This document shows positions 38,402 to 61,970 of a DNA stretch of 64,000 bases, piece after piece; position 1 is the first letter of the stretch; each line of letters starts with the position of its first letter. The notes under the pieces are model-generated. The model ran no database searches and was not told where the DNA came from. It worked only from the letters and a program-made list of their open reading frames with translations. The translations under genes and the position numbers were made by a program. The DNA comes from Candidatus Kuenenia sp. Its GTDB lineage: Bacteria; Planctomycetota; Planctomycetia; Pirellulales; UBA1268. The DNA lies in assembly GCA_038144795.1 (NCBI GenBank), contig JAYQOK010000001.1, positions 2,085 through 66,084 on the forward strand, in the 5' to 3' direction.

Positions 38402-38428
38402 GGAAGGCCTCTCCTGTAGTGATTGCCC

Positions 38429-41018: not shown

Positions 41019-43115
41019 ATGAAGTATTGGCAAACCTGTTTCTTGTCGACGTTCCTGATTGGCTGTTCGGGGGTGGGGCTTCTCTGGGCTGAACCCGTGG
41101 GCAACTACGACCTCGTGATCTACGGCCCAACCAGTGCCGGGGTCGCCGCCGCCGTACAGGCCAAGCAGATGGGCCTCAGCACAATCATCGTTGGTCCCGA
41201 CAAGCACCTCGGGGGGCTCTCTGCAGGTGGACTCGGCTGGACGGACAGTGGCAACAAGGCGGTTATCGGTGGCGTGGCGCTCGAGTTCTACAAGCGGGTC
41301 TACGATTATTACGACAAGCCCGCAACCTGGAGATGGCAGGACCGGGATGCCTATGGCAACCGCGGCCAGGGAACGGCAGCCATGGATGGGAATGGTCGGG
41401 CAATGTGGGTCTTTGAACCACACATCGCCGAACAGGTCTTTGAAGACCTCATCCGCGACCACGAGATCACCGTGCACCGCGACGAGTGGCTGGACCGCTC
41501 CGGTGGCGGCGTAACAACAACGGACGGCCGTATCACCTCGATCAGGATGCTCTCGGGCAAGGAATACGTGGGGCGCATGTTTATTGACGCTACTTATGAA
41601 GGCGACCTGATGGCAGCAGCGGGCATCAGCTACACCGTCGGCCGCGAGGCCAATAGCGTCTATGGCGAGACACTCAACGGCGTTCAAGTCGACCACGCCC
41701 ACTCGCACCAGTTCACCAACGACATCTCCGCCTACAAGGTGCCGGGTGATCCGGCCAGCGGCCTGCTGCCCCGGGTCCACGACGGCAGCCCCGGCGTGCA
41801 GGGTGAGGGTGACCATCGCCTGCAGGCCTACAACTTCCGAATGTGCCTCACCCGCGTGCCGGAGAACCGGGTGCCATTCCCCAAGCCACCAGGCTATGCC
41901 CCGGCTCAATACGAACTTCTGCTCCGCGATCTCCAGGCTGGCTCCCGACATATCCGCGGCAAGTTTGACATGATTCCGAACCTCAAGACCGACACCAACA
42001 ACCATGGGTCGTTCTCCACTGACAACATCGGCATGAACTACGACTATCCTGACGCCAGCTATGAGCGTCGCCGGGAGATTCTGGCCGAGCACCGGACGTA
42101 TCAGCAGGGCTACTGCTACTTCCTCGCCAACGACCCGCGGGTGCCCGAGGATGTTCGGCAGTGGTACGGAGCCTGGGGTCTCGCCAAGGACGAGTTCACC
42201 GACAATGGCCACTGGCCGCATCAGATCTACGTCCGTGAGGCTCGGCGGATGGTTGGCGACATGGTCGTCAATGAGAACCATCTGCGGCGAAAGATTCCGA
42301 CCGAGCGGTCGATCGGCATGGGGTCCTACAACATGGACTCGCACAACGTGCAGCGGTACGTCGACAAGGACGGCTTTGTCCGCAACGAAGGTGACATTCA
42401 GGTCAACCCGGGTGGCCCCTACCCGATCGACTATGGGGCGATTCTGCCGAAAAAGGCTGAGTGTGAAAATCTGCTGGTCGTCTGCGCGGTCTCCAGTTCC
42501 CACATCGCCTACGGCTCGATCCGAATGGAACCGGTCTTCATGATCCTCGGCCAGAGTGCGACGACCGCGGCGGCCCAGGCACTCAAAGCCGGTGTCGCTG
42601 TCCAGGATATCGACTACGAGATCCTCGCTGCCCAACTCACCGCCGACGGCCAGGTGCTGGACTACGCTGGAGGCCGCCGGACCAGCTCCAAGGGAGTCGC
42701 CGTCGAAAGCATCAAGGGAATTGTTGTCGATGACGAGGCTGCCGACCGCAGCGGCGATTGGGGTGTGTCGAGTGCCGTCGGACCGTTCGTCGGGCAGGGC
42801 TACCGCCACGATGGAGATGACAGCAAGGGCGACCGAACAATCAGCTTTGCAACCAAACTCACGTCAGGCCGATATGAAGTGCGGCTGGCCTACACGGCCA
42901 ATCCCAATCGTGGCACGAATGTGCCGGTCACCATTCGGCACACCGGTGGCATCGCCACCAAGCAGATCAACCAGCGAAATCCCCCAGACATCGACGGGCT
43001 CTTCGTCTCTCTCGGCAGGTTTACTTTTACCGACACTGCCACCGTCGAACTGGGCAACGCCGGCACCGACGGCCATGTGATTGCCGATGCGGTCGTGTTT
43101 GTTCCAGTTGAGTGA
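41019..43115 (+). CDS. FAD-dependent oxidoreductase (PF12831-like) with a C-terminal beta-sandwich/carbohydrate-binding-like domain
   Basis: YDLVIYGPTSAGVAAAVQAKQMGLSTIIVGPDKHLGGLSAGG dinucleotide-binding motif and a signal peptide. GAGGAG lies 8 nt upstream of the ATG. The C-terminal 150 aa or so (GDWGVSS...GHVIADAVVFVPVE) resemble the tail commonly attached to this family. Confidence 0.85.
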   Translation: MKYWQTCFLSTFLIGCSGVGLLWAEPVGNYDLVIYGPTSAGVAAAVQAKQMGLSTIIVGPDKHLGGLSAGGLGWTDSGNKAVIGGVALEFYKRVYDYYDKPATWRWQDRDAYGNRGQGTAAMDGNGRAMWVFEPHIAEQVFEDLIRDHEITVHRDEWLDRSGGGVTTTDGRITSIRMLSGKEYVGRMFIDATYEGDLMAAAGISYTVGREANSVYGETLNGVQVDHAHSHQFTNDISAYKVPGDPASGLLPRVHDGSPGVQGEGDHRLQAYNFRMCLTRVPENRVPFPKPPGYAPAQYELLLRDLQAGSRHIRGKFDMIPNLKTDTNNHGSFSTDNIGMNYDYPDASYERRREILAEHRTYQQGYCYFLANDPRVPEDVRQWYGAWGLAKDEFTDNGHWPHQIYVREARRMVGDMVVNENHLRRKIPTERSIGMGSYNMDSHNVQRYVDKDGFVRNEGDIQVNPGGPYPIDYGAILPKKAECENLLVVCAVSSSHIAYGSIRMEPVFMILGQSATTAAAQALKAGVAVQDIDYEILAAQLTADGQVLDYAGGRRTSSKGVAVESIKGIVVDDEAADRSGDWGVSSAVGPFVGQGYRHDGDDSKGDRTISFATKLTSGRYEVRLAYTANPNRGTNVPVTIRHTGGIATKQINQRNPPDIDGLFVSLGRFTFTDTATVELGNAGTDGHVIADAVVFVPVE

Positions 43116-45696: not shown

Positions 45697-45954
45697 TCAG
45701 GAAGGGCCCCAACCAAGAGTTGGATGGTGGGACCTACGAAACACACAGCGCCGTGACGGCTTCCGGAGCCGGTGATTCGGCGAGAACACTCCGTTGTAGG
45801 GATGCCGATGCTCCCGCGGCAGCGGGACGAGATCGGCCAGCTGGTCCAGAAACTCAAACGGCGTGAGTTCGACGACCCCAATGGCCCCCGCCGCGTGGAC
45901 TTCCGCCCGCGCCCTAGGCCGAACCAGTGAGCCGCCTTGCCGCAGTTGCAGCAA
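45697..45954 (-). mobile_element. remnant of an IS91-family (Y2 / PF04986-type) transposase C-terminus
   Basis: ELTPFEFLDQLADLVPLPREHRHPYNGVFSPNHRLR resembles the conserved C-terminal segment of IS91-like transposases (L..L..L.PPPR.H..RY.GV..PN..LR). Only about 50-80 aa remain and no N-terminal part is present. Confidence 0.5.
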
Positions 45955-46011: not shown

Positions 46012-46707
46012 TCAATCGTCGCAACATCCGTCGTCCCCTTCGGCCACGGCGCCGACGCCCCGGCGAAAACTCCTGATGAGGGCAACCACCCCGCACGCTG
46101 CCACGGCCACCCCGACTACCGGCAACGTCGACGACAGCATGCTCCCCAGGCCAAGCAGGATCAGCAACAGCCCTCCGGCGCATGGTCCGAGCCGGCTCCA
46201 AAGTGCGTGACCAATCTTCGCGATCAGCCAGACCACGAGCAGCCCCGCCAACACAAGCCCGAGACGCGTGCCACGGTCGACCACCCGTTCATCCACGGCC
46301 TCCGCTGTGATGACAAGATCGCCACGGGGGGTGGTGAAGAGATACTCACGACCGCGTGTGGGGATCGAAACGTCAAGGCTGGCAAGCACCAGGCCGGCCT
46401 GAGGTGCGGTGCCAAGCCCCGCCGCGGTCGAGGAACTTGGGGCGACGCCGCTGCCAAATCCGCTGGCAGCACCACCACCCATGCCGCCCATCCCGCCGTA
46501 GCCACCGCCGGCGCGACCACCCATGGTCCCAAACTGGCGAGCCAAACCGAGTTGTTTCTGCTCAGCCTCTTCAACGAGCCGCACGTCACCGAGGGCACCC
46601 GATCTGGGGCCATCGATGGACTTGGCCAGCTGTCGCTGGCTCTGCTCGTCGCCCTGCATCGGAGCGTCGATAACGTCCTGAGCGAGTCGTTGTTGATAGC
46701 GCTGCAC
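46012..46707 (-). CDS. membrane-anchor tail of giant module B2, in frame with the giant ORF but separated from it by a TAA
   Basis: Same reading frame as 46795..54243 (both start coordinates are 1 mod 3), with no further stop in between. A Gly-rich linker is followed by REYLFTTPRGDLVITAEAVDERVVDRGTRLGLVLAGLLVVWLI and more TM helices, paralleling the C-termini of modules A and B1. The tracked start is a GTG without an RBS. Confidence 0.5.
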   Translation of the reverse strand: MQRYQQRLAQDVIDAPMQGDEQSQRQLAKSIDGPRSGALGDVRLVEEAEQKQLGLARQFGTMGGRAGGGYGGMGGMGGGAASGFGSGVAPSSSTAAGLGTAPQAGLVLASLDVSIPTRGREYLFTTPRGDLVITAEAVDERVVDRGTRLGLVLAGLLVVWLIAKIGHALWSRLGPCAGGLLLILLGLGSMLSSTLPVVGVAVAACGVVALIRSFRRGVGAVAEGDDGCCDD

Positions 46708-46794
46708 CTGATCGCGAAGTTCGACACGCTGCTGCTGAGGCTTCGAGGAATCTTCGAATTCTCGCTCTCCACCGCGACCAACCCAGCGTTTATT

Positions 46795-49700
46795 TTAAAT
46801 ATCCTCAAAGCCAACGCCAGACTGGCGACGATCAGCCTCGGCTACCGAAAGTTCGTCGAGGCTCTTCGCGAGCTGGCGCTCCCCGGCAGCCTGTTCGGCA
46901 TCGTTCACGGCCCCTCTGTCGGTGCGCCCAAACCAGTTGGTGTCCACCCAACGCCGGTTGAGAGAACTCGCTTCACCGGCTTGCTCGGCGACACCCTTTT
47001 CGTCTACAGCAAGCTTCGACTGGGGTGTGACCGCCAGACCCGAGGCGTCGAAGTTCAGGTTCAGTTCATTCACCACATTGGTGCCACGCGCCACATTCTG
47101 GCCTTGGAAGTACGACCAGAGCTGAGTCCCATTGCCAACGTTGACCTCGACCGCATCGGCCGGCATCTGGCCCGCCTGCACCTGCGCTTCTTCGACGATC
47201 GAACTGTTGGCCATCAGTTCTCGTTCGAGCCGGTCGTTCGCACCACTCGATTGCCGAGAACTCCGGAAGGTCGAGACATATCCCTGCAACGACTCCCCGA
47301 GCTGCAGGGCGTTGCTGCGTGCTCGCACCCGTGAAAATACATCCTGCGATTCGGATGAAGCCACCTGCATCAGCTGCTGCATCTTCTTGTTTTGGTAGGC
47401 CAAGAAATCGGCCGTGAGTTCGTCAGCGTCGCCGACCATGCGCAGGGTGCCATCGAAGGCAAACCAGCGATGCGTCTCTGGGAGCCAGAGCCGCACCTGA
47501 CTCTGCTCGACATTGATGTTCACTGTTTTGAGGAAAGGGAATCGCAGCGATGCCGTCTGCTCGAGTGGGCCAAGCGTGCCGCCATATGTAAGCACCACCG
47601 CGTAGTCGAGGTCGCCAGCCTGCGTCTTGATCAGCGGAATGCCCACACGGCGCGTGTTGGCGGCATCCATCGCGGTCGGCTTGACCGGTTCACCCGCGAC
47701 GACGGCAGACCAGAGCGAGGCTCCCTCTGGAAGTTCGACTTCGAGCAACTGCTCAGTCTTATTGTCGATACGGTATTCCTGAGTGGCCCGGTAGACGCCA
47801 CCACCGTCGACGGAGAGCGTCGTGACGGCCAGCCCAATCCGCGCCCCCGCCGATTCAACGAGGCTTCGCGACCGCAGGGCGAATGAAAGCTTTGGGGCCT
47901 CGGCGTCGGCCGACACTAGATACGCTTGCGTGGCCATCCCCGGCAGGATGCTCGCCAGGTCACGCCAAGCCGCCTGCTGGCGACTCACCTCGCGGACACC
48001 GTCGCTCTCGGTGACCACGATTTCGTCACGTCCCTGGTTTTCTAAAACGACGAAGCGGTGCTGCGTGCTGCCTGTCTCTATCTGTGGCAGCGCCGCCTCG
48101 TGGGCTACCTCGCGAAGCGGTCCTGTCTGTTCGACGAGGACGGCCAAGGCGCCAATCACCTCGTCCTGCAACCGCACGTGAAACCGCACCATGCCAGGCT
48201 GCTCCGCGACCGGTTCCACAGTCTTCTCGAGCAAGAGGGGCACGTGCACGTCGGCATGCTGAAGGGCTTCCGGGAGCAAAAACACTAACTCGCGAATACC
48301 CGCCTCCGCGATCTCAAAACGAAGCAGCACTGTTTCCACAAGCTCCCGTGGCGTGACCTGCACATTGGTGAGTCCAACTGCCGTGACAATCGGCTGCCTG
48401 CGGCTCACGCGAAAACTCGCCGCAAACGCCGCACCTCGGGCGAAAACGGCAAGCCTCGCGAGGCTTCGTTGCTCCGCGGCCAGCCAGTCAAACGTGCGGG
48501 GCAACGGAATCACCTCGGCATTCTCCAGGCCTACCACGTCGACACTCATCGACGGATCGGCCTGGACGACCACCGTGCTCGTCTGGCGGCTCGCCTCCGG
48601 AAGTACAAACGCAGGTGCTGCCACCGAGAGCCCACTCTCAAGCGTGCCCGTGATTGTTACCGACCACGGCCCCTTGGCTCCCGCCACGAGGTCGATCACA
48701 AGCTGCGTGTCCTCGCCGGGCACGAGCGTCCATCCGGAGAGCCCTGGGCAGCTGACCCGATCCACCGTGACGCCGGCAGGCACTTCCACACGGACGCGGT
48801 GGAGTGGACGATCATCCACCATGCAAGCCAGGCGAGTCTCATAGGTCGACTCCCGCTCCGAGATCCGCACGAGCGTCTGCACATTGGCGGTCAACTGCGC
48901 CTGCAGCGACCGTGCCGCGACCGCGAGGTCGAACCGCTCGTTCGCGAAGCGATACGCCTGGAACGAGCGAACAGTGAGCGGACTGTCGTCGGGAAATCGC
49001 TCGAGGAGCGTGGCAAGGCGATCGGCGGGCGGGTCATCCCGAACCAGCCCCTCAGCATTCACGACACGCAGGTCGACGAGCGGGCCCCGTCGCAGCACGA
49101 GAAAGCCTTGATGCAACACGGCCTCCGGAACCCCAACGGCGGAGAGAGCCAAGGCACTCGCGCCGTCAAACACCACGTCGACCGGGAGCGAAAGCCTGAC
49201 CCACAGCTGCTCGTTGCCAGAAGCCGGCTCGAGCAGCGTCACGTCAATCTGCTGCGCCACAGCCCCGTCGTCGCGATTGAGGCGGCTGATCTCCCAGCCG
49301 CGCACCTTTGGCCCTTGCACCGCTTCGACCAACCAGCCCTCAGGGACATCGAGCGTAAAAACCTCTCGCTGCCCCTGCCGCACATCGAGATCCAACTGCC
49401 ACGCCGCGTGCACCCCATCCTCTCGGACATCGACGACCGCCAGCGACCGAGCCGTGAGCGCCTCATCGACCCGAGCTGCCGAAACTTTCGATATCCACTC
49501 CACGGTGATCGACGCGTCTGCCGCGAGTGCGGTCTCCACGGTTTCCTCAGCCTGCCTCGTCTGCTGGGTGATCAACCCGTCTGCACCGACGACGCGGAGT
49601 TCGGTTTCAGCGGCCGGCACACGCAGCGACAGACGCGTGGCTGGGGCGACGGGGAGCTGGCCACGAATCGATCGCCAGCCTCCGCGCTGTTCCAGGGGGA

Positions 49701-52700
49701 GCCGGATCGTGAGGTTGAGCTGATGACGCCCGATGCCGTCGGCGATCAGCACCACCATCGGTTCTCCTGGATGCGGCGGGAGCACCGCTTGCTGTGCAGC
49801 CTCTTCGGCTGGCTGCTGGAGTGGCTCCACAAGGCGCAGCAGGGCCGGCTTTTGATCAAGCATCGCCCGCTCAAGAACGCCACCGCGCAGTCGCAACGGC
49901 ACCTCAACCGTCTCTTTGGAATAGATCTCCAACTCGAGTGATCCGTTGATCACGAGTTCGCCACTTTCGACGAGCCGCGCGGTGTAGGAGGCTCCGCCGA
50001 AGGCAAACGGAGCGGGCAGTGGGCGGGCAGCCTCCGGCCCATTCCCCTCAGCGATCGCCTTGAGCCTGGCATACTCGGCAAAAGGGATCAGCACCTTGTC
50101 GGCAGCGGCGAGCGCCGTGGCACTCGGCAGTTTGCCGGAGTCTTCTTGGGGATCCTCTGAGGCGTCACCTCCGTCGTAGGGAACAATCACCGTGTTCTCA
50201 GGCACCGAGACAGGCTCGCGTGGGTCGAGTTTCTCGAGAAACTCTGCCACCGTCATGTCACCCGCGGGTGGCTCCCCATCTTGCGCGGCTGCGTGCTCAC
50301 CCGCGGCCAGAAGCGTCAGCCCAACCAGCAGGCCGATCCCCCCATCGGCTGCGGCTCGCCACGGCACACGACGCGTCACCCAGCCGGCGAGATCAATCGC
50401 GACATAACACGGAAGCGCGACCACCGCGACAAAAAAAGCAGGCTGAAAGAGTTCGTGCAGTTGAAAGCCCATCGTCAGCTCCACGGCACTCGGCACGACC
50501 AGGGTGAGCAGGATCGCACTTGCAACCACACGTGCCCGCGCCCGCCAACTTCGACCAACGACCAGGACCCCACTCGCTGCCACCAGCACCGCCAACCCCG
50601 CGGCGACAAAGAACAGCCGAGTTTCCTGCACGAGCGTCGCAGAAAGCACAGGCCTCCCGCCCAAACTCACGAATGTCACGCGATGGCCTTGCTCACCGAG
50701 TTCAATGGGAAGACTGCGGACACCCTCCAGGGCCCATCGAAACGATTCCTGCGATGGTTCAGCGAAGTACACGTTTGCCTGAGGAGCGGAAGCCGGCTGC
50801 GAAGCAGGATCCGCAGGCGCTGACTCCGAAGCCATGCCTGTCGGGGCATTGGCTGCAAAGCCATCGGCAAGCACTGATTCTTTCGCCTTCGCGGCGGAGT
50901 CCTGGTCAAACTGCTCCGCTTTGTCAGCAAGTGCCGCCAACTCAGGTGACGTCGGAGCTGCGGGAGCATCAGAGGCCGCCAGCGGAATCGCCTCTGCGTC
51001 GGTGGCAACGGCATCTTTCCTCCGCGCCAGGAGCAATCGAGAGGGGCGTGCTGCCTGTGGGAGCAACGGTGACGCCACGCCCAACGGCTCAATGCCCCCA
51101 CCAAGCTCCGCGAGCAACCGCAGCGGCGGCGTCAACGACCACGGCCGATCATCCGAGGCGGCCGCAAAGACACTTCCATCACTGCGGACCACTCGGTACC
51201 CATCTGGCAACACCACCTGCCACTCCACATCCGCCAGCGGAACCTCGAATCGGGTTGCCCCATCCTCACTGCGAACCGCCAACCGCGGCGAATCCTCGCG
51301 CACCTGCCCACTCCAGCCGTACGTTGTCGATGCCATCTCGTAGACGATGGTCACATCGCGAAGCACCTGCTGATCACTCGTATTTGGCAGGCTGACCAGC
51401 AAGTCCTCTCCATCTCGCTGCGGCAACGAGGGGGAACCGTCGATCGTGATCGACCACAGGTTGGCCCCCGCAGGCAACGTGAGTTGGAGAAATGACGCAT
51501 TGGTGCGGAGCAGAAACCGGGCAGCGGTCTGACTCGTCCCGTTGGCCCCCTGAAGGGTGACCAACGCCGCCCGCTGAGTGATCGCGGTGGGCAGCCCGTA
51601 GCCCGGGCGTCGCTCCACCTCCGCCGTCACCGCCGCCGTCCCAGAAAACCCGTAGACGCCAAGCAGCCTCCGCCCCACCTGAGCCTCAGCATCCACCAGC
51701 TCTCCCACATCGATTCGCCGCCCTTCGGTCACAAGCGACACGCTGACTTCAGGGTTTCCTTCGACCGCGACGGCCGCCGACTGGTAGGCCACGCCTTCGG
51801 CAACGACACAGGGCAGATCGATCTGCGTCTCTTCCTCCACGGTGAGCGGTTCTTCAAAATCGATCGCCACACCAGCCTGGCCGCGGGTGTGATCGGCAAG
51901 TCTGGCCGTCCAGACCCGTCGTCCGTCCTCCTCACGGCTTGAGAACTCGGTGACCTGCACACCCTGCAAACCGCGCAGCGAGATTGTTTTGGGGGTGCTC
52001 GCCGGCAGGGAAAAACTCAGGCTCGTCGCCGCGGCACGCTGGATGTTGTAGAGCACCTCAGCATGGGTGGCGACTGCTTCGTTTTCGATCCGAAAGAAGT
52101 GAAACGAACGGGCGGTCAGGGCGGGTGTCTTCCGAGTTGCTAGAAAACGCACCTCAACCTCCTCGCCATCGAGGCGATAGGCGAACGTACCCTCGTCTGC
52201 GGACAGCCCCAAGGCTTCTAACTCACGTCGCGCGAGCGGAATCACCCCAGCGATCTGCTGGGGTTGCACGGCGAGATCATCTGTCGCCGTGATGGCAACG
52301 GCACCTTCGCGACGTTCCGCCCCATCGACGTTCACCATCGGAAACACCACCGGCATTTCAGCCCAGGTATCGAGCCAGCCGTCCGGGACACGCGTCGCCT
52401 CCAACGACAGCCGCACTTCGCCCCCAGCCGCAACGGCGTGGGGCAGCCTCACCAGAATGCCGCTTGCCCCTTTCTCACCGCCGACCACAGGGGCAAACGC
52501 AAGCAATGCATCTTGGGCATCGGTCACGCCAGTCACCTCCCAGCCGCGCGGAAGCCGCAGTTTCACGGCAAAGAGCGGATCGACCCGTGGTGAAAGCGAA
52601 ACCGTCGCCCGCAGTCGCAACTCCGCCTCGCGGAGCGTCAGGAGGGTGGCCGTCGTGGCATCGACGCCCGAAGAAGGTCGTTTCAGCTGGCTGCGCACCG

Positions 52701-53934
52701 TGGCCGTCGCGTCGGTTGCAAGCCACGCCCCAACGGCTCGCAGGGTTGCCGCACGAGGCTCCGCCTGCATCACACTCGCCGGGAGAACTTCCGCAAAGAC
52801 GGCTGTGTCGATCGGGATCAGTCGGACGGCATCAAACGACTCGGCGACCAAACGCTCATCGAGCAGCAAGCCAAGCAGCGACGTGTGGCTGGCCACATCG
52901 AGTGGCTCGATTCTTGGCATCACCCACTCGCCAAGCAGCGGACGACTTGAGCCCCCTGCGTTGGTGGACGCCGCCGTGATCCCCAGTGTGACCGAGTCCA
53001 TCAGCGGCTCGTGGAGCTGCACTTCGAGGACCCGCCCCTCTCCATCGTCTGGCTGCACAACCACCCAACGGCTCACCTGCGCAGCCGAGACATCCGTGAC
53101 CTCAAGCCCATCTGGGAGCCGAAACCGAAACTGCGTCACCGCTCCCCGCAGCACCCGCATCGTGAGCGTGGCGTGCAGCCGTTCCGCAGCCTGGGTGACC
53201 TCATCGACGATCACACTGCTCGCCTCAACCACCCGCTGGCTCGCCGTCGTGCGATTGTTCAGCGACATCACAAGGCTCTGGTCGCCCCGTGCCACTGGCA
53301 GTTCAAACGACGTCGCTCCTGCGGCTTCGTCAAACGACCGCGACAGGGCAGGGCTCCGCATTTCCACATTGCCAGGAACGGTGAGCCGCAGCTGCGTCGC
53401 AGCCGGAGTCGGCACACGGAAGGAGACCGCCTGCTGTGCCGCCGAGGCCTCAATGCGGGTCGTTCCTTCAAGCGTCAACGCGTGACGACCCACGCCTTCC
53501 ACAAAGAGCCGCAAGCCCCCATCCTCGCCGCGACCGAGCACGGCGACCGCCCCGTCGAGGGACGCGGAGAGCAGCCCCACGCGATCAAGGTCGAGCGGCA
53601 CGGCATGGAGCCCGGGTGCGAGCACCTCAACCTCCAAGGAGCCTTGCAGAAACGCCCGTTCGCCGGCCATCCGGATCTGATAGTCCGCCGACACGAGCAG
53701 CGTGTCGCGCGGCACCGGCGCCTCGGGCTCGGCAGGCTTCGCGCGGGCGAGGAGGTCTTGATACTCCTCGCGACTGACAAACACCCGCTCGGCGCGCCCG
53801 TCGAGCAGCAAGTCGAGATCGGCATACGGCACAAAGATCTCTCGCACCGGCTGCGACTCATCGGCCATCGCCTGCCCGAGCACCGCACCGAAGCAGCATG
53901 CGAGCAACACGCGCCACAGAAGAAGGCTACGCAT
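46795..53934 (-). CDS. giant secreted/membrane protein B (2379 aa), a fusion of two paralogous modules (B1+B2); no recognisable domain
   Basis: ORF 46795..54243. Met104 gives a signal peptide (MRSLLLWRVLLACCFGAVLGQAMA) and an 8-nt overlap with the stop of module A. An internal cluster of 4 TM helices at 50257..50619 separates two halves that each repeat the architecture of module A. Confidence 0.8.
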   Translation of the reverse strand: MRSLLLWRVLLACCFGAVLGQAMADESQPVREIFVPYADLDLLLDGRAERVFVSREEYQDLLARAKPAEPEAPVPRDTLLVSADYQIRMAGERAFLQGSLEVEVLAPGLHAVPLDLDRVGLLSASLDGAVAVLGRGEDGGLRLFVEGVGRHALTLEGTTRIEASAAQQAVSFRVPTPAATQLRLTVPGNVEMRSPALSRSFDEAAGATSFELPVARGDQSLVMSLNNRTTASQRVVEASSVIVDEVTQAAERLHATLTMRVLRGAVTQFRFRLPDGLEVTDVSAAQVSRWVVVQPDDGEGRVLEVQLHEPLMDSVTLGITAASTNAGGSSRPLLGEWVMPRIEPLDVASHTSLLGLLLDERLVAESFDAVRLIPIDTAVFAEVLPASVMQAEPRAATLRAVGAWLATDATATVRSQLKRPSSGVDATTATLLTLREAELRLRATVSLSPRVDPLFAVKLRLPRGWEVTGVTDAQDALLAFAPVVGGEKGASGILVRLPHAVAAGGEVRLSLEATRVPDGWLDTWAEMPVVFPMVNVDGAERREGAVAITATDDLAVQPQQIAGVIPLARRELEALGLSADEGTFAYRLDGEEVEVRFLATRKTPALTARSFHFFRIENEAVATHAEVLYNIQRAAATSLSFSLPASTPKTISLRGLQGVQVTEFSSREEDGRRVWTARLADHTRGQAGVAIDFEEPLTVEEETQIDLPCVVAEGVAYQSAAVAVEGNPEVSVSLVTEGRRIDVGELVDAEAQVGRRLLGVYGFSGTAAVTAEVERRPGYGLPTAITQRAALVTLQGANGTSQTAARFLLRTNASFLQLTLPAGANLWSITIDGSPSLPQRDGEDLLVSLPNTSDQQVLRDVTIVYEMASTTYGWSGQVREDSPRLAVRSEDGATRFEVPLADVEWQVVLPDGYRVVRSDGSVFAAASDDRPWSLTPPLRLLAELGGGIEPLGVASPLLPQAARPSRLLLARRKDAVATDAEAIPLAASDAPAAPTSPELAALADKAEQFDQDSAAKAKESVLADGFAANAPTGMASESAPADPASQPASAPQANVYFAEPSQESFRWALEGVRSLPIELGEQGHRVTFVSLGGRPVLSATLVQETRLFFVAAGLAVLVAASGVLVVGRSWRARARVVASAILLTLVVPSAVELTMGFQLHELFQPAFFVAVVALPCYVAIDLAGWVTRRVPWRAAADGGIGLLVGLTLLAAGEHAAAQDGEPPAGDMTVAEFLEKLDPREPVSVPENTVIVPYDGGDASEDPQEDSGKLPSATALAAADKVLIPFAEYARLKAIAEGNGPEAARPLPAPFAFGGASYTARLVESGELVINGSLELEIYSKETVEVPLRLRGGVLERAMLDQKPALLRLVEPLQQPAEEAAQQAVLPPHPGEPMVVLIADGIGRHQLNLTIRLPLEQRGGWRSIRGQLPVAPATRLSLRVPAAETELRVVGADGLITQQTRQAEETVETALAADASITVEWISKVSAARVDEALTARSLAVVDVREDGVHAAWQLDLDVRQGQREVFTLDVPEGWLVEAVQGPKVRGWEISRLNRDDGAVAQQIDVTLLEPASGNEQLWVRLSLPVDVVFDGASALALSAVGVPEAVLHQGFLVLRRGPLVDLRVVNAEGLVRDDPPADRLATLLERFPDDSPLTVRSFQAYRFANERFDLAVAARSLQAQLTANVQTLVRISERESTYETRLACMVDDRPLHRVRVEVPAGVTVDRVSCPGLSGWTLVPGEDTQLVIDLVAGAKGPWSVTITGTLESGLSVAAPAFVLPEASRQTSTVVVQADPSMSVDVVGLENAEVIPLPRTFDWLAAEQRSLARLAVFARGAAFAASFRVSRRQPIVTAVGLTNVQVTPRELVETVLLRFEIAEAGIRELVFLLPEALQHADVHVPLLLEKTVEPVAEQPGMVRFHVRLQDEVIGALAVLVEQTGPLREVAHEAALPQIETGSTQHRFVVLENQGRDEIVVTESDGVREVSRQQAAWRDLASILPGMATQAYLVSADAEAPKLSFALRSRSLVESAGARIGLAVTTLSVDGGGVYRATQEYRIDNKTEQLLEVELPEGASLWSAVVAGEPVKPTAMDAANTRRVGIPLIKTQAGDLDYAVVLTYGGTLGPLEQTASLRFPFLKTVNINVEQSQVRLWLPETHRWFAFDGTLRMVGDADELTADFLAYQNKKMQQLMQVASSESQDVFSRVRARSNALQLGESLQGYVSTFRSSRQSSGANDRLERELMANSSIVEEAQVQAGQMPADAVEVNVGNGTQLWSYFQGQNVARGTNVVNELNLNFDASGLAVTPQSKLAVDEKGVAEQAGEASSLNRRWVDTNWFGRTDRGAVNDAEQAAGERQLAKSLDELSVAEADRRQSGVGFEDI

Positions 53935-56900
53935 CGTTGCCTCCTTTGTTGCTCGCGAACTGGTCGAGAAGCGGCACCGAAGCATCGAGTTCAAGGGGTG
54001 GGCCATCCGCGGCAGCGCCGGGCTTGGCCGCGGGCGGCGAGGCCGTCTTTCGCGGGCGACAACGCGTGGCGGCTCCCACGAGCCACAGCAGCCCAACTCC
54101 GCCCAACCCCACCGCGAAATACTGATCGATGATCTGCATGGCCAGCATGGGAACGAGGATGCCCATCGCCACCAGCCCGCTTGCGAGCAGCACGAGCACT
54201 GCGAGTTTCGTGGAGAACCGCGATCGCATAAACACCAGCCCAATCAGCGTGAGCCCTGCCAACACGCCCCCGGTCACCAACCGCTCGTCAACGGCGATGA
54301 TCTTCAGGGAACCCTCTGGTGGTGGACTCGGCCGCAGGGCGGTAAAGCGATACGACCGTCCGTCCGTCGCGAAGGACCGCAGCCTCCCCTGGTCAACCGC
54401 CACGCCCTCGCTCACCCAGACGAGCAAGTCGCTGTCGTCGCCCGTTCTCCATGGAAGCCCGTTGAGCTGCGCAAAAAAGTCTTTCTGCTCGTTGGTCCAA
54501 GGCCCACGGGTGTCGAGTACGGCCAGTTCATCCGGCAGCGCAACCACCAGCGACACCTTCTGAACGGCTGGCTCGGTGGCCACACCACTCTGTTCTGGAA
54601 AGACCGGAAGATCGAGTTGGTCGTAGGTGCCAGGGAGCGTGTAGCGCATTTCCACGAGACACGGCTGATCATGTCCCTGGGCAATCAGCGGAATAAACAG
54701 TTGCTCCCCTTCGCCTCGTTCAAGCGGCTGTGGCTGCCCATTAATGGTGAGCATGTCCATGTCGAACTGGCTGCCAACTGGCAACGTCACGGCCAACCGC
54801 TGCAGCACACTTCGCACCCGATAGATGGCCTGCACGGTGATCTCGTCGCTGCGGGTGACCACCATCCGCACCACAGCACGTTCGATACTCGCCCGCTTCA
54901 CTTCCTCAAGTTCATACCGAGTGGCGGTGACCGTCAGCCCCCAGGCGTCGGTAAACTCAAACGCCCGAGCCACATCAGCCCCGTTCGCCCCAGGCATCAA
55001 GTCATGCTGGGGATCGATCGGCCGCAGTCCACTGAATCCTGGGGCGGGCCGGACATCGAGGGTCTCCGCTTTGCTCACCAGGATCTGCCCCCAGGCGCGA
55101 TCCACGCCACGCGGGGTAAGGACAGGCAGCGGATATTCTCCGCTCTCCCCAACGGCGAGTTCAGGCACGACCTCTTCCCAGGTCAACGGCACCATCACCT
55201 GGCCAAGCAGTTCTCCCTCGCCCGTAAACTCCAGGGCCACGTCTCCCTCGGCCACGTCTTCGGGCTGCGGCTCAAGTGCTCGCTTGGTGATGCCCGAGTT
55301 CACGGGCATGCGTGCAATCGCCGCAACTTCCGCAGGCAGGTCGATCCGCAGCGAACTGACTGGACTGTAGGCCACATCAAACGTGAACGTCGCCTTGGAG
55401 GTCACCACGCCCGAGTCGACGTCGACAGCGAGCAACTGCCTGGCAGTCACCTGCGGGCGACGTCGCTCCGCCGAGAGAGTGAGGCTGGCGGCGTCTTGGG
55501 CATAGGCAAATGCCATCACTTCCCGCAGGCCGGGCGCGCGGCCGTCACGAATACTCGGCACCTCGCTACGAGCATCGACCACCGCGACATCTTGCAACTT
55601 CGAGCGACTCGTCGGTGTCAGCTGCAAACTCTCGGGCCCGAGCACCACGAGCCGACCGCTGGTGCGGCGCACCGGGGTGACGATGGTGAGCAGAGGGAGC
55701 TCGAGAGTGCTCGTCTGTCCCGTGGCTGCAAGCAGATTGGGATCGTCGAGGGGCTTGATGAGCGTCACCACCAGCCCGACCCGGCCAAGCGCCTTGCTCG
55801 CTAGATTGATCGAAAGCCGGCCGCTCGCGTCGTCGGCGAGGTGGAAGGTGTCGACGTTGACGGGCTGGCTCTCACCCAGCTGTCGCCCCTGTACCCGGCG
55901 CACCTCATAACCCGACGGAACGGCCATCTCCAGCTGGAACACGCCCGCGTCTTCGATGCCAAAGATCGTGGCCACATCGAGCACGAGTTGATTGGGTTCC
56001 ACGTACGCTTCGATGAGTTGCTGCGCCTCGATCCTCGGTTGCACCGCCTCGATGTCGAGCTCGAGCGCAAACGGCATCGTCGCCGCACGGTAGGCAAAGT
56101 CCCACGGAATGGCGCGAACCGGTTCTGGCAACTCAGTCGCATCCAGTTGCAGCAGCCCCTCGGTGACCGCTGCCTCGCCACGGAGTTCGTCCGTCAGCCG
56201 CACCACGACCACCCCCTGCTGCCGGCTCACGCCAACCGCCTGCACGCTTGGAATGGAAAGATGCGAGCGGCTCGCCTCATCGAGAATCTGCTCCAGCTCG
56301 ACCGAGAGCTGCTGCTGATCACGCACCGGCTCAAACAAATCCACCGTGATCCTTTGCAGTCCATCGACCTCAGCCACATCCCACTGCCGTACGTTGGCAT
56401 CGGCCACCCGCGTGATCTTCTGACCGGCAGGCACGTCGACGACCAGCTGCGGCAACTCGGCTCGGCTGACGTCGTAGGTCAGTTCTGCACGCGTCCGCAG
56501 GAGCCCTTCATCCACGGTGACCTCTTGCCGCGACTGCACGCTGGCGACCGCCGCCATCCCCGACGCCCCTTCCGCCTTCGGCGTCCAGTCGATGCGAACA
56601 CTCGCCGCCGGCCCGACAAACGCAAGCACAACTGTCTCGTCTTCACGCGGAGGCTCACCATCGCCCCCCTCCGGAGGCACTTCGGCCGCCGCGAGCATCG
56701 GCTGCACGTTGACCGTCACTCCCGACTGCGGCACGCGAATCCGCCAACGGTTGACGGCCGCTCGGGGCGACTCAAATGAAACCGAGTTCTGACCAGGAGA
56801 CTTGGCATAGGCCTTGGAGTAGTCAAGTGAGAGGGTAAGCGTGCGGGGAGCGTCACCTTCATGCTCGACGAGCAGCATCGAACTGCCGTCGCCGGCCACC

Positions 56901-57385
56901 ACCACCCGCGCGGCCTTGGCGTCCAGCGTGGCGGAACGGACAGCAGCATCGGCGAGCCGCAAGGGAATCTCGTGCCACCCCTTTCCAAGGAGTTCGATCG
57001 AAACCTCAGCCCGCACCCGCACGACATCCGCCTCAACCGTCGCCTCGCTCTCGATCTCGGTGATCACCGCGCCCACGGGCGGCGGGGCGTCGGGCTGCGG
57101 CTCATCCGCAAGGCGGGCCTTCTTCCAGAGTTCCTGAAACTTTTCGTAGGGGATGAAAACGCCTCGGCCATCTTCCTCAAAGAAGCCCCGCAGCTTGCGG
57201 TAAGGAATGTAGATCGTCTGCTCGCGCAGCGGCGGCAGGCCAGACGCCTCTGCGGAAGCATCCGCTTGGGCGTCGGCCGGTGCGTCCGAAACCGGCTGCT
57301 CTTCTTGGGCCCACGCGAGAGACACCGCAAGAAGCATCGCCACGAGGCCCGCCGCCAAACCCTTCCCGAAGATTCGATTTTCCAT
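53927..57385 (-). CDS. giant secreted/membrane protein A (1152 aa), paralogous to both halves of B; no recognisable domain
   Basis: ORF 53927..57484. Met34 gives a signal peptide (MENRIFGKGLAAGLVAMLLAVSLAWA). Three C-terminal TM helices. N-terminal motif IYIPYRKL...VFIPYEKFQELW is shared with B1 and B2. Confidence 0.8.
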   Translation of the reverse strand: MENRIFGKGLAAGLVAMLLAVSLAWAQEEQPVSDAPADAQADASAEASGLPPLREQTIYIPYRKLRGFFEEDGRGVFIPYEKFQELWKKARLADEPQPDAPPPVGAVITEIESEATVEADVVRVRAEVSIELLGKGWHEIPLRLADAAVRSATLDAKAARVVVAGDGSSMLLVEHEGDAPRTLTLSLDYSKAYAKSPGQNSVSFESPRAAVNRWRIRVPQSGVTVNVQPMLAAAEVPPEGGDGEPPREDETVVLAFVGPAASVRIDWTPKAEGASGMAAVASVQSRQEVTVDEGLLRTRAELTYDVSRAELPQLVVDVPAGQKITRVADANVRQWDVAEVDGLQRITVDLFEPVRDQQQLSVELEQILDEASRSHLSIPSVQAVGVSRQQGVVVVRLTDELRGEAAVTEGLLQLDATELPEPVRAIPWDFAYRAATMPFALELDIEAVQPRIEAQQLIEAYVEPNQLVLDVATIFGIEDAGVFQLEMAVPSGYEVRRVQGRQLGESQPVNVDTFHLADDASGRLSINLASKALGRVGLVVTLIKPLDDPNLLAATGQTSTLELPLLTIVTPVRRTSGRLVVLGPESLQLTPTSRSKLQDVAVVDARSEVPSIRDGRAPGLREVMAFAYAQDAASLTLSAERRRPQVTARQLLAVDVDSGVVTSKATFTFDVAYSPVSSLRIDLPAEVAAIARMPVNSGITKRALEPQPEDVAEGDVALEFTGEGELLGQVMVPLTWEEVVPELAVGESGEYPLPVLTPRGVDRAWGQILVSKAETLDVRPAPGFSGLRPIDPQHDLMPGANGADVARAFEFTDAWGLTVTATRYELEEVKRASIERAVVRMVVTRSDEITVQAIYRVRSVLQRLAVTLPVGSQFDMDMLTINGQPQPLERGEGEQLFIPLIAQGHDQPCLVEMRYTLPGTYDQLDLPVFPEQSGVATEPAVQKVSLVVALPDELAVLDTRGPWTNEQKDFFAQLNGLPWRTGDDSDLLVWVSEGVAVDQGRLRSFATDGRSYRFTALRPSPPPEGSLKIIAVDERLVTGGVLAGLTLIGLVFMRSRFSTKLAVLVLLASGLVAMGILVPMLAMQIIDQYFAVGLGGVGLLWLVGAATRCRPRKTASPPAAKPGAAADGPPLELDASVPLLDQFASNKGGNDA

Positions 57386-57522
57386 GAACGTCGCCCTATG
57401 GCCCCGCCGGTCCCAACTCACGCCAATCGGGATCCAGCGTAGTTCCCCGTGCTCGTTTGAGCGAATTTCCCACGGATTCCGCACCTATTGTAAGGCTGAG
57501 AGCCCCTTGGACGCCGATCGCC

Positions 57523-57707
57523 TGGCTTCGACGCCTCATGTCCGACGCCGCTCAGAGGCTGTGAATATTGATCACGGCCAACTCGTCGGGCGATGCTTGA
57601 AAGATTGCCCGGTCGTCGTGGACCTGCACGAGCTCACCCCAGTCGATCGGCGGGCCACGAGCGGAAGAGACGGGCGGCGGCTCGAGTGGTTCGCCACCCG
57701 GGCCATG
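57523..57707. repeat. 185-bp direct repeat, copy 1
   Basis: 178/185 identical to 58738..58922 at a fixed offset of 1215 bp. Contains the 3' end of small ORF 57552..57776 (-). Confidence 0.9.
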
Positions 57708-57776
57708 AGCTTCGCTCAGGCAATCCGTGACGTGTCGTGCGAAGCATTCGCTGTCGCCGCAACAACTACTTTGCAA
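57552..57776 (-). CDS. small ORF S1 (74 aa) whose C-terminal 52 aa are encoded by repeat copy 1; coding status doubtful
   Basis: The C-terminus GPGGEPLEPPPVSSARGPPIDWGELVQVHDDRAIFQASPDELAVINIHSL is paralogous to S2. Three of 6 in-ORF differences between copies are synonymous in this frame. The N-terminus overlaps the DUF1080 stop region. Confidence 0.25.
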   Translation of the reverse strand: MQSSCCGDSECFARHVTDCLSEAHGPGGEPLEPPPVSSARGPPIDWGELVQVHDDRAIFQASPDELAVINIHSL

Positions 57777-58506
57777 GTTCGCGAAACATTACCTTCCGCC
57801 AGCGGACAGAGTAGGGGCCCGTTCCTTTGGCAATGCCGTGCACCTGAAAGCCAATGTGGCCCTCAGGATCGTGTGGCTGATGGAAGTCGGCGGTGGGGAC
57901 GTCGTTGATCCAACTGCGGTAGTGATCGCCTTGGACAACAATCCGGTATGCATTCCACTCGCCTTTGACAAACGCGGCCTTGGCCGCATCGGTGCGAATG
58001 CCTTGCGTCTGTGTGAGTTCGCTCCACCAGTTGCCGCGACGTGCCTCGTCCCAAAAGTCACCCGCGGTGCCATTGATTGCGATTTCACACTGTGGTCCGA
58101 AGAGACGTCCGGGTGGCAGGGCGTTCTGGGCGCCTTCTTCCGGCCCGTCGCCTTCCTTCGAGAGGTGGCTTCGCACCTGCACGCCCGAGTTCAGTTCGTC
58201 ATCGACGAGCACTTCGAAGGTCAGTTCAAAGTCGCCGACGGGCTTCGCGGTGGCAAGAAACGTGTTCGGGCTTCCGTCGGCAGTGGTGCCGATCAGCACG
58301 CCGTCTTTGATTTCGTAGGTGGCGGTGCCGCTGACGATTTGAAAGCCTTCGAGGCTGCCGTTTCCAAACCAGTGCACCCAGCCAGAGTCTTTCTCAGCTG
58401 CCACTGCAGAAGACGGAGATGAAGCGGCCAGCACGACCGTGCAGCCCATGGCGACAACACACATCAGGTGGCGAACAGGCCGGAAGGAATCGCGAATTTG
58501 CATCAT
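57766..58506 (-). CDS. DUF1080 (3-keto-disaccharide hydrolase-like) domain protein, secreted
   Basis: ORF 57766..58575. Start placed at the ATGATG (Met24) with GGGAG 4 nt upstream, followed by a signal peptide. GWVHWFGNGSLEGF...YEIKDGVLIG...GDFELTFEV...NSGVQVR...IGFQVHG pattern of DUF1080. Confidence 0.85.
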   Translation of the reverse strand: MMQIRDSFRPVRHLMCVVAMGCTVVLAASSPSSAVAAEKDSGWVHWFGNGSLEGFQIVSGTATYEIKDGVLIGTTADGSPNTFLATAKPVGDFELTFEVLVDDELNSGVQVRSHLSKEGDGPEEGAQNALPPGRLFGPQCEIAINGTAGDFWDEARRGNWWSELTQTQGIRTDAAKAAFVKGEWNAYRIVVQGDHYRSWINDVPTADFHQPHDPEGHIGFQVHGIAKGTGPYSVRWRKVMFRELAK

Positions 58507-58540
58507 GAAACTCCCATGAACAAAGACCTCTTGAAAAATT

Positions 58541-58560
58541 GGATAACGGATAACGGATAG
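58541..58560. repeat. tandem 7-bp repeat GGATAAC x about 3
   Basis: ggataac ggataac ggatag, 35-54 nt upstream of the DUF1080 start codon. Confidence 0.8.
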
Positions 58561-58592
58561 CCCGGTCAATGGCACCTCCGCAACGACTGCCT

Positions 58593-58625
58593 AGCTCATG
58601 AGCAGCTCATGAGCAGCTCATGAAC
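58593..58625. promoter_or_regulatory. 3 x 11-bp tandem repeat with a palindromic core (AGCTCATGAGC), candidate operator
   Basis: agctcatgagc agctcatgagc agctcatgaac. Each unit contains the palindrome GCTCATGAGC (first two units) or CTCATGA (third). Lies about 90-120 nt upstream of the DUF1080 start. Confidence 0.45.
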
Positions 58626-58683: not shown

Positions 58684-58737
58684 ACAATGGCGTTTTTCTC
58701 GCGTCGGTGCAGACCGCATTACAGTCGGCCGTTCCCG

Positions 58738-58922
58738 TGGCTTCGACGCCTCCTGTCCGACGCCGCTCAGAGGCTGTGAATATCGATCACGACCAACTCG
58801 TCGGGCGACGCTTGAAAGATTGCCCGGTCGTCATGGACCTGCACGAGCTCACCCCAGTCGTTCGGCGGGCCACGAGCGGAAGAGACGGGAGGCGGCTCGA
58901 GTGGTTCGCCACCCGGGCCATG
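58738..58922. repeat. 185-bp direct repeat, copy 2
   Basis: See copy 1. Its distal end (58922) coincides with an abrupt switch to AT-richer sequence. Confidence 0.9.
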
Positions 58923-59063: not shown

Positions 59064-59319
59064 GTGTGATTCCGCACTCGCTTCCGGTTAACGGTCTAAA
59101 CGCTTTGGTATTCTGCATCTGACCTAGTTTCCAAAGTATCGCTCGGAGGACCCAGTGGCAATGAAATAGCCGCACTAGGAACCAGTTTCCGGCCTGCAGG
59201 CGGTCGCTAGAATGCCATGGCAGGCTGGATTTGTGAGTGAGTGGAGCGCAAGGTGCCCTGTGATTGAAGAGAGCGCAAGGTCAAGTACTGAGATCGCGTC
59301 TAAAACTTTCGAGCCCGTT

Positions 59320-61944: not shown

Positions 61945-61970
61945 GTTTGTTCTCAATCATTTTCGGAAAA

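Follow-up and report, generated by a model that had tools for sequence, protein, structure and literature searches.

A conserved gene pair of Pirellulales encoding three paralogous, membrane-anchored giant units with a predicted beta-sandwich fold

The planctomycete envelope is atypical in its enlarged and invaginated periplasm, its crateriform structures, and the dozens of DUF1559 pseudopilin paralogues encoded per genome, and to our knowledge the proteins that build it are mostly not known. Among described bacterial proteins, BatD is a periplasmic beta-sandwich protein tethered to the inner membrane, common in Bacteroidota and in the Planctomycetes-Verrucomicrobia-Chlamydiae (PVC) group, for which no mechanism has been established, and bacterial alpha-2-macroglobulins (A2M, of the YfhM/ECAM type) are large periplasmic arrays of beta-sandwich (MG-like) domains tethered to the same membrane. 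This study concerns two adjacent genes, A and B, in a 64,000-nucleotide (nt) stretch of a Pirellulales genome (hereafter, the window; assembly GCA_038144795.1, contig JAYQOK010000001.1, positions 2,085 to 66,084, labeled Candidatus Kuenenia sp.). The module formed by these genes occupies ~11.4 kb, which places it among the larger conserved coding investments in Pirellulales genomes, and its family comprises thousands of sequence clusters in metagenomes with no name in any family database.

An initial annotation of the window, made from the sequence alone, had recognized no named or catalytic domain in these genes, and sequence searches agree. Neither A nor B nor the 3' end of B matched any Pfam or NCBIfam family at E values up to 1, and searches of the PDB returned 0 matches at E values up to 10, with a single sequence and with a 63-sequence profile alike. 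Among 38 orthologues searched against Pfam at E values up to 5, matches were scattered noise with no consistent family, the commonest (Lipocalin_9 and DUF5693) each appearing in 4 of the 38. No profile assigned the proteins to a Bat or DUF4139 family, the examples that the initial annotation had given of a characterized family that would undo its novelty. Searches of the literature on crateriform structures, cryo-electron tomography, DUF1559, and planctomycete pseudopilins turned up no description of the family.

Three paralogous units in a self-contained gene pair

The division of the locus into three tandem paralogous giant units of one architecture, as first proposed, is borne out by pairwise and profile alignments, all of which are significant; the coordinates of gene A and its overall architecture are likewise as originally described (Table 1). 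When B is split at about amino acid (aa) 1190, BLASTP relates unit A to the second unit of B (B2) at an E value of 1e-13 (24% identity over 762 aa), the two units of B to each other at 6e-8, and A to the first unit (B1) at 2e-5. Comparison by hhalign of profiles made from 63 orthologues of A and 46 of B aligns A with B1 over 1018 columns (E = 2.8e-46), A with B2 over 1034 columns (E = 1.1e-46), and B1 with B2 over 1109 columns (E = 1.7e-48). The profiles are collinear from end to end, with between-unit identities of 18 to 22%; A, B1, and B2 are three ancient paralogous copies of one very large membrane-anchored protein, predicted to be all beta. That B holds two units thus stands; the boundary between them had been placed at aa 1226 and actually lies at about aa 1190 to 1212.

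The sole large difference among the units is the length of the linker that separates the last sandwich strand ("V.L.L.LP..") from a membrane-proximal hairpin, which measures ~35 aa in A, ~130 aa in B1 (where it is Ala/Pro rich), and ~360 aa in B2. Repetition also occurs within unit A, in which a module of ~170 aa is present three times (aa 304-470, 475-641, and 654-823); self-alignment of A with hhalign gives E values of 7e-15 and 1.5e-13 at a shift of ~171 aa and of 7e-5 at a shift of ~350 aa.

Gene B carries an in-frame stop, and the portion near its 3' end had been annotated as a separate "tail" open reading frame (ORF), an assignment that does not hold. The frame from 53934 to 46012 comprises 2640 codons, a single one of which is an internal stop, and the B orthologues are single ORFs of 2550-2900 aa. 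In two metagenomic contigs with 93% nucleotide identity to the window (L006 and L009), the site of the TAA reads GAA (Glu); the B ORF is intact in L009 and open up to the contig end in L006, and every indel between the window and L009 is a multiple of 3. Because the two parts share one frame, are separated by a single TAA, and are joined by GAA in both close relatives, B and the tail constitute one interrupted gene. The stop itself is probably either a private G-to-T nonsense change or a base-calling error; programmed readthrough or conserved recoding at this codon was considered and rejected, since the close relatives carry GAA. If the stop is real, B2 would lose only its last hairpin and its terminal anchor, and the rest of the protein would remain tethered by a central cluster of transmembrane helices. 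The ratio of nonsynonymous to synonymous codon differences is 0.77 after the stop versus 0.33 before it; ratios of 0.32-0.42 for the family indicate purifying selection. Split B genes in three other loci (L003, L036, and L082) were examined as a possible ancestral three-gene state and set aside: they look like frameshifts, and the split in L003 falls off the unit boundary.

The start codon of B (ATG at 53934) overlaps the stop codon of A by 8 nt, and the Shine-Dalgarno sequence for B, GGAGG, sits within the last codons of A. This arrangement, which can be written GGAGG-N5-7-ATGnnTAR, is present in nearly all of the ~60 loci examined (the 8-nt overlap was scored directly in 35) and in the called genes of relatives, and both the GGAGG and the overlap of start and stop codons are kept in orthologues from 96% down to 45% identity. 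Conservation of the GGAGG junction accounts for a near-invariant Gly-Gly at the C terminus of A, and the conserved GGAGG/ATG junction argues for coupled translation of A and B at a fixed ratio. No RNA family was matched by Rfam anywhere in the window, and promoter and terminator scans of the window returned background levels only. Given the 8-nt overlap, a single frameshift would fuse A and B. One protein of 2372 aa from the search of representative genomes (P0318) matches the A profile in three stretches, the first of which spans a complete A unit; either a fusion of A with B or a gene call merged by a frameshift may explain it.

Hydropathy indicates that A has a cleavable signal peptide (cleaved between ...AWA and QEE) and three C-terminal transmembrane helices and that B has a signal peptide, four transmembrane helices at aa 1108-1212, and three more at aa 2560-2620. 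The fourth helix of the central cluster in B aligns with the signal peptide of a free-standing unit, suggesting that B is an old fusion in which the signal peptide of B2 was turned into a transmembrane helix. By this alignment, three helices of the cluster would be the anchor of B1 and the fourth a retained signal-anchor of B2 that returns the chain to the periplasm. Counts of three, four, and three helices put all three large domains on the periplasmic side, and the ectodomains are therefore likely periplasmic and anchored in the cytoplasmic membrane. The envelope role that had been proposed for these proteins is thus supported by their signal peptides and alpha-helical membrane anchors; a cell-surface location is unlikely, as helical anchors point to the inner membrane. 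Lipoprotein anchoring of B was also considered and rejected, the N-terminal "LLAC" not being conserved.

The statement that the units contain no recognizable domain, which is correct at the level of sequence, does not extend to fold: the middle 900 aa are confidently predicted as a chain of beta-sandwiches. AlphaFold2 (AF2) models were built with family alignments for A and for B2 (B aa 1190-2379, which omits the last hairpin and the anchor). The model of A has a mean predicted local distance difference test score (pLDDT) of 84 and a predicted TM-score (pTM) of 0.48, and it is nearly pure beta from aa 106 to 1033, followed by four helices. The model of B2 (pLDDT, 77.5; pTM, 0.44) contains a beta array at local residues 121-961 and, after it, three long helices at local residues 981-1004, 1010-1037, and 1045-1066.

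The motifs first noticed at the N terminus, in the first sandwich, and near the C terminus are real and conserved in orthologues. The N-terminal motif, found in all three units, has 11 residues between aa 61 and 86 of A that are invariant among the 63 orthologues (P61, F69, E70, G73-V76, P79, Y80, F83, and L86); AF2 models it with low confidence in A and, in B2, as two short strands plus a helix. Also invariant are G136, W137, and L144 in the first sandwich and P951 in the C-proximal "LP" strand. In the anchor of A, sequence conservation is low except at G1075, F1077, P1079, Q1084, and W1101. The membrane-proximal hairpin is conserved in orthologues, and it and the N-terminal motif are the best-conserved parts, as opposed to the transmembrane helices, whose weak conservation is what anchors would be expected to show. 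Of 85 invariant residues in A, most are G, P, A, W, or L, and none is His or Cys. The combination of weakly conserved membrane helices, conserved motif and hairpins, and mainly structural invariant residues suits a protein with a structural or docking role better than an enzyme or a transporter.

The linkers of B contain additional elements. The motif ...RAxxNLKQLGLALHNYHDTY(R/K)xF is carried by the B2 linker of 26 of 117 full-length B homologues, at a relative position of 0.82-0.87, and by 0 of 120 A homologues; it maps to the helix modeled at local residues 1010-1037. One B orthologue with this motif (P0129) matches PF07596 (DUF1559) at E = 1.3e-7 and 32.3 bits (cutoff, 23.3) over profile positions 9-41 of 268; the B protein of the window has no match, and orthologues match within positions 9-45 only. 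These positions follow the hydrophobic pilin helix in pseudopilin-like proteins. The linker helix of many orthologues shares with DUF1559 proteins the family signature NLKQ[IL]GLALHNYHDTY, but B lacks a prepilin cleavage/methylation motif, the hydrophobic helix of pilins, and the globular body of DUF1559 proteins, and the motif lies ~2200 residues into the protein, after a soluble helix. DUF1559, a family of no known function, is the largest paralogue family of planctomycetes and numbers 68 members in P. limnophila (PMC10632474).

Two orthologues contain other matches in addition. A Thermoguttaceae B orthologue of 2998 aa (P0225) has an STN/FecR_C domain inserted at aa 1274-1349, a periplasmic docking fold found in secretins and in TonB-dependent receptors and transducers, and another orthologue (P0198) has a precomputed match to the PATR autotransporter repeat. 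It appears that additional periplasmic modules can be tolerated in the linkers or recruited to them, and the linker motif and the STN/FecR_C insertion are hints of periplasmic docking functions in these regions.

Homologues of A, all named "hypothetical," form more than 573 clusters at 90% identity with a typical length of ~1150 aa, and at least 147 such clusters were found for B among the scored candidates. An exhaustive profile search returned 5162 clusters at 50% identity with E values of ≤1e-3, 1454 of them with values of ≤1e-30. In species-representative genomes, 329 stretches encode a relative; the best 80 of these are nearly all labeled Planctomycetota, mostly Pirellulales (Pirellulaceae and Thermoguttaceae), with a few labeled Anaerolineales or simply "bacterium." Exact-pattern matches in other planctomycete orders (Singulisphaera, Gemmata, and Fimbriiglobus) were dismissed as chance, and matches in metagenome-assembled genomes labeled Verrucomicrobiota, Kiritimatiellia, and Omnitrophota, which show the same ~44% identity as those in Pirellulales, are read as mis-binned contigs. 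Cultured carriers are Anatilimnocola aggregata ETA_A8 (ETAA8_67280), A. floriformis, and Anatilimnocola sp. NA78; strain NA78 has been described as A. aquadivae (PMC12992917). The complete genome of A. aggregata encodes A (1206 aa) and then B (2736 aa) with the same 8-nt overlap.

An ORF of the A/B family is present in all 87 of the clustered loci, and a complete B-type ORF (2480-3000 codons) directly follows A in 46 of 86 scanned loci, with B running off the contig end in many of the shorter contigs; where the contig continues beyond A, a B-type ORF comes next in most loci. There is no conserved partner gene: no other family occurs in more than 9 of the 87 clustered loci. Similarity to the 93%-identical relatives spans exactly 46028..57523 and ends at both edges of the module, and A and B therefore form a self-contained conserved two-gene module without conserved neighbors. 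To that extent the undescribed system suggested for this locus exists, as an uncharacterized conserved gene pair; beyond that, its function is only inferred. In the L009 and L006 contigs, the module is 93% identical to that of the window at the nucleotide level and both flanks are unrelated to it. Conservation between unrelated flanks suggests either rearrangement around the module or its transfer as a unit. The gene upstream of the module in these contigs encodes a 1055-aa protein with only borderline Pfam matches (DUF3604 and Reg_prop).

Table 1. Features of the A-B module and its immediate neighbor, in window coordinates
Feature	Position	Strand	Description	Basis
Gene A	53927..57385	minus	ATG start, TAG stop, 1152 aa; equals unit A. 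Parts: signal peptide, N-terminal motif, beta-sandwich array, three transmembrane helices, short cytoplasmic tail	ORF and translation
N-terminal motif of A	57107..57223	minus	aa 55-93, REQTIYIPY..GRGVFIPYEKFQELWKKA; densest invariant block in A	
Beta-sandwich array of A	54287..57070	minus	aa 106-1033; predicted almost all beta	AF2, pLDDT mostly >90
C-terminal membrane anchor of A	54065..54283	minus	aa 1035-1107; three hydrophobic helices	Hydropathy; AF2 helices 1034-1108
Translational-coupling junction	53927..53944	minus	GGAGG 53944..53940, 5 nt, ATG 53934..53932, TAG 53929..53927	Sequence
Gene B	46012..53934	minus	2640 codons, B1 and B2 fused; one in-frame TAA within	
Unit B1	50365..53934	minus	B aa 1-1190. 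Parts: signal peptide, N-terminal motif, beta array, Ala/Pro-rich linker of ~130 aa, membrane-proximal hairpin, transmembrane helices	hhalign versus A profile
Central four-transmembrane cluster	50299..50613	minus	B aa 1108-1212	Hydropathy; alignment to A anchor and signal peptide
Unit B2	46015..50364	minus	B aa 1191-2640. Parts: N-terminal motif, beta array, helical/low-complexity linker of ~360 aa, membrane-proximal hairpin, three transmembrane helices	hhalign versus A profile
Middle helix of B2 linker	47266..47337	minus	B aa 2200-2223, FSRVRARSNALQLGESLQGYVSTF; degenerate in the window, reads RARSNALQLGESLQGYVSTF	
Premature stop TAA	46795..46797	minus	Codon 2380 of B; leaves a 2379-aa product and a 231-codon tail	
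"Tail ORF"	46012..46707	minus	3' end of B2, in the frame of B; membrane-proximal hairpin LASLDVSIPTRGREYLFTTPRGDLVITA and three terminal transmembrane helices	
DUF1080/3-keto-disaccharide hydrolase gene	57766..58575	minus	Real gene, local neighbor	

A candidate periplasmic scaffold and competing readings

The reading that we favor, at about an even chance, is that A and B form a nonenzymatic periplasmic scaffold anchored in the inner membrane and composed of three paralogous units, with A and B in a 1:1 ratio and a pseudo-trimeric arrangement. The gene pair would yield A and the fused B1-B2 protein in fixed proportion; each unit would be exported by a signal peptide, with the retained signal-anchor serving B2, and would project into the periplasm a rigid run of beta-sandwich domains ~900 residues long. 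Each unit would be held in the cytoplasmic membrane by three weakly conserved helices that form a bundle, with the highly conserved N-terminal motif at the membrane-distal end. Standing side by side, the three units would make up one scaffold on the inner membrane in the periplasm of Pirellulales, in which the N-terminal motifs and the membrane-proximal hairpins would supply the contact sites or interfaces and the variable linkers would set reach or flexibility.

What underlies this proposal is that the units are paralogous and share a predicted topology and fold, that translational coupling is conserved, that the module stands without conserved neighbors, and that catalytic signatures are not detectable. 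Complex formation, the stoichiometry of the complex, a structural or docking role, and any partner are what we infer from these observations. Physical association of A with B, and of the units with one another, is suggested indirectly by the conserved translational coupling and by the adjacency of A and B across loci. Several points weigh against the scaffold. Assembly and stoichiometry derive from gene organization only; the pTM values of 0.48 and 0.44 are low, such that the models do not fix the arrangement of the domains, whether as a rod or in a compact form; and structural analogies, with TM-scores of ≤0.30, are generic. The units may bind a substrate such as a glycan or protein, and the 10 transmembrane helices may have a role beyond anchoring, the conserved P1079 and Q1084 near the TM2-TM3 loop of A hinting at more than a passive anchor. 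Overall, the function of the module is weakly constrained.

A more specific form of the scaffold, which we consider unlikely, is a pseudo-trimeric inner-membrane tower, specific to the Pirellulales lineage, whose conserved N-terminal tips dock onto peptidoglycan, the outer-membrane layer, or DUF1559 filaments and which thereby organizes the wide planctomycete periplasm. Such a tower would act by setting spacing, by positioning pili or crateriform structures, or by guiding the uptake of macromolecules, and, if it exists, it would provide the first functional handle on the expansion of DUF1559.

It is rather improbable that the module assists, as an accessory or as a docking component, a type IV filament machine (resembling a type II secretion system [T2SS] or a type IV pilus) that uses DUF1559 pseudopilins. 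The B2 linker helix would then imitate the N-terminal helix of pilins, in its amphipathic half, and so make contact with pseudopilins or the assembly platform, and the beta arrays would serve as a periplasmic cage or guide. Consistent with such a machine, the motif NLKQLGLALHNYHDTY occurs at a fixed position in 26 of 117 B orthologues, scoring above the Pfam cutoff for DUF1559, and in no A orthologue; one Thermoguttaceae B orthologue has the STN/FecR_C insertion; and T2SSE and T2SSF genes in one locus (L004) and a secretin gene in another (L007) lie a few kilobases upstream of A. However, the match to DUF1559 covers only ~33 of 268 profile positions, without a prepilin leader or a hydrophobic pilin helix, and the motif has decayed in the window and in 91 of 117 orthologues, indicating that many lineages can do without it. 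Conserved neighbors in the 87 loci include no secretion or pilus gene, and capture of a fragment is plausible given the abundance of DUF1559 in these genomes.

A similarly small chance attaches to a periplasmic binding matrix, in which the arrays act as carbohydrate- or protein-binding modules that retain macromolecules in the enlarged periplasm. Immunoglobulin-like (Ig-like) and beta-sandwich arrays are often ligand binding, and genes for glycan processing (the DUF1080/3-keto-disaccharide hydrolase family, esterases, and sulfatases) are abundant in the window and in several related loci. Uptake of polysaccharides into the planctomycete periplasm, as described in one report (PMC5394234), would agree with such a matrix. 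On the other hand, no carbohydrate-binding module or lectin family was matched in the 38 orthologues at E values up to 5, the glycan genes are not conserved neighbors, and the invariant residues are mostly structural.

Very unlikely is membership in a known envelope family, be it BatD/aerotolerance, DUF4139/MuiA, or a bacterial A2M-like protease trap. BatD-like proteins and bacterial A2M are, like the units, inner-membrane-tethered beta-sandwich arrays; A2M, CD109, and complement proteins are among the Foldseek matches; and DUF4139 was matched in 1 of the 38 orthologues at E = 0.2. Against these resemblances, no BatD, DUF4139/DUF4140, or A2M profile matches the window proteins and none does so consistently in the 38 orthologues, the thioester motif CxEQ occurs in 0 of 240 homologues, the neighborhood lacks MoxR, DUF58, and vWA genes, and Foldseek assigns the A2M-type matches probabilities of 0.3-0.6 and a TM-score of ~0.06. 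We give as little credence to a transporter or channel, in which the 10 transmembrane helices of an A-B pair would form a conduit beneath a periplasmic funnel of beta arrays: the helices and their vicinity contain a few conserved Pro, Gln, and Gly positions, but the membrane segments are the least conserved of the ordered parts, their loops measure only 4-10 residues, no transporter family was matched, and no ATPase or other energizing partner is encoded nearby.

Least probable of all is that the locus is a pseudogene or a misassembly. The premature TAA, the raised codon-difference ratio behind it (0.77 versus 0.33), and the transposase remnant and 195-nt direct repeat at the flanks might point that way, but the lesion is a single substitution, and every indel that separates the window from the close relative is a multiple of 3. 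Gene A and 90% of B show no disruption and evolve under purifying selection, and the part behind the stop is, in any case, the linker under the least constraint. Moreover, intact members of the family occur in hundreds of genomes, among them complete ones from cultured strains.

We regard the module as a good and tractable candidate for planctomycete envelope biology. If it forms a structural envelope complex, it would be a concrete and genetically testable candidate for organizing the periplasm, and such a test is feasible, as cultured Anatilimnocola strains with complete genomes carry it. It also offers an evolutionary example of an assembly of three paralogues in which two members appear permanently fused and a signal peptide converted to a fourth transmembrane helix. 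Should it prove to be merely another sandwich-repeat protein, the gains would be the definition of a family and the correction of a split-gene annotation.

Surroundings of the module

The DUF1080 gene beside the units had been noted as part of their setting. The gene is real, but it is not a partner of A and B: similarity to the close relatives stops at the module edge, and no neighboring family recurs in more than 9 of the 87 loci. Nor does the repeat-rich region upstream belong to the system, since synteny with the 93%-identical relatives ends at the module edges.

That region contains a 195-nt direct repeat whose two copies (57513-57707 and 58728-58922; 95% identical) bracket the DUF1080 gene and are located ~130 nt upstream of the start codon of A and ~150 nt upstream of that of the DUF1080 gene, respectively. 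Similarity to the 93%-identical relatives breaks off at the beginning of the first copy, which on the minus strand holds an open frame that ends in ...IDWGELVQVHDDRAIFQASPDELAVINIHSL at a stop codon. No further copies were found in the window or in the fetched loci; the repeat could be a duplicated regulatory or gene-fragment segment, or an insertion scar. An 11-nt perfect tandem repeat, AGCTCATGAGC (2.8 copies, 58593-58623), located just upstream of the DUF1080 start, forms an 18-nt palindrome.

Just downstream of B, an 85-aa ORF (...ELTPFEFLDQLADLVPLPREHRHPYNGVFSPNHRLR...; 45697-45954, minus strand) aligns with the C-terminal end of Pfam Y2_Tnp, an IS91-type transposase, at E = 0.067, below the cutoff, and is probably what remains of a transposase, located where synteny breaks on the downstream side. 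Farther out, the plus strand carries gene pairs of planctomycete type at 35120-39856 (PSCyt1/PSCyt2/PSD1 and DUF1501) and 59212-63329 (PSD/PSCyt3 and DUF1552), and the module is further flanked by two esterase genes and by a gene (41019..43115) for a flavin adenine dinucleotide (FAD) oxidoreductase that has a Golvesin_C domain. These genes confirm the phylum and are not linked to A and B.

Comparison with known systems

BatD shares the inner-membrane tether and periplasmic sandwiches, whereas A and B are much larger, triplicated, and anchored by three helices per unit. Neither PF13584 nor an NCBIfam Bat family was matched by the window proteins (E values up to 1) or by the 38 orthologues (E values up to 5), and no MoxR, DUF58, or vWA (BatA/BatB) gene is among the called neighbors in 8 loci. 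DUF4139 and DUF4140 (PF13598 and PF13600) are absent from the window proteins, and the single orthologue with a DUF4139 match at E = 0.2, out of 38, is noise. A2M, CD109, and C5 turn up in the Foldseek lists of both the A and B2 models, but the matches to A2M, C3, and CD109 (probability, 0.28-0.57; TM-score, ~0.06; root mean square deviation, ~50 Å) amount to no global fold match. The CxEQ thioester motif is missing from all 240 homologues, no A2M Pfam family was found in the window proteins or the 38 orthologues, and bacterial A2M is anchored by a lipid, in contrast to the C-terminal helices of A and B. Bridge-like systems (MCE/LetB, AsmA/TamB, and Lpt) are not represented by any Pfam match in the same proteins, and the MCE barrel, beta-taco, and beta-jellyroll are absent from the top 50 Foldseek PDB matches of either model.

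What Foldseek does retrieve from the PDB with both AF2 models is generic beta-sandwich arrays, at TM-scores of ≤0.30 and identities of 7-12%: ribophorin I/Ost1, integrin alpha legs, PIG-T, a mastigoneme, CD109/A2M, and the N-domain of M1 aminopeptidases. As judged from the models, this pattern looks like the generic signature of beta-sandwich chains that end in a helical anchor. The integrin alpha legs (thigh, calf-1, and calf-2, followed by a transmembrane helix) align at E = 4e-10 over 800-900 columns (8t2v_A and 3fcs_A) and resemble the predicted units in that successive Ig-like sandwiches lead to a membrane anchor, the integrin chain working within a heteromer. The TM-score is ~0.15, however, and A and B have no beta-propeller head, metal-site motifs, or sequence similarity to integrins, and the likeness is therefore at the level of a string of sandwiches only.

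The best PDB match is ribophorin I (6s7o_E; E = 3.5e-10, probability 1.0), along with yeast Ost1 (7oci_A, 6c26_1, and 6ezn_A), and PIG-T is matched through 8imx_T and 7w72_T. The TM-score to ribophorin I/Ost1 is 0.23-0.30 on the target and 0.13 on the query, at 9-12% identity, values compatible with generic sandwich similarity, and PF04597 (Ribophorin_I) was not matched by the window proteins or the 38 orthologues. These are eukaryotic endoplasmic reticulum proteins with a catalytic partner, whereas A and B have no partner encoded nearby, and ribophorin I/Ost1 has two domains and one transmembrane helix, as opposed to roughly eight or more domains and three helices here. Ribophorin I/Ost1 and PIG-T nevertheless resemble the predicted structures of A and B in consisting of noncatalytic, noncytoplasmic beta-sandwiches followed by a C-terminal helical anchor, and both are scaffolds within hetero-oligomers. 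Set beside these systems, A and B belong to a real, large, and unnamed family that presents a known type of fold in a new triplicated and partly fused arrangement.

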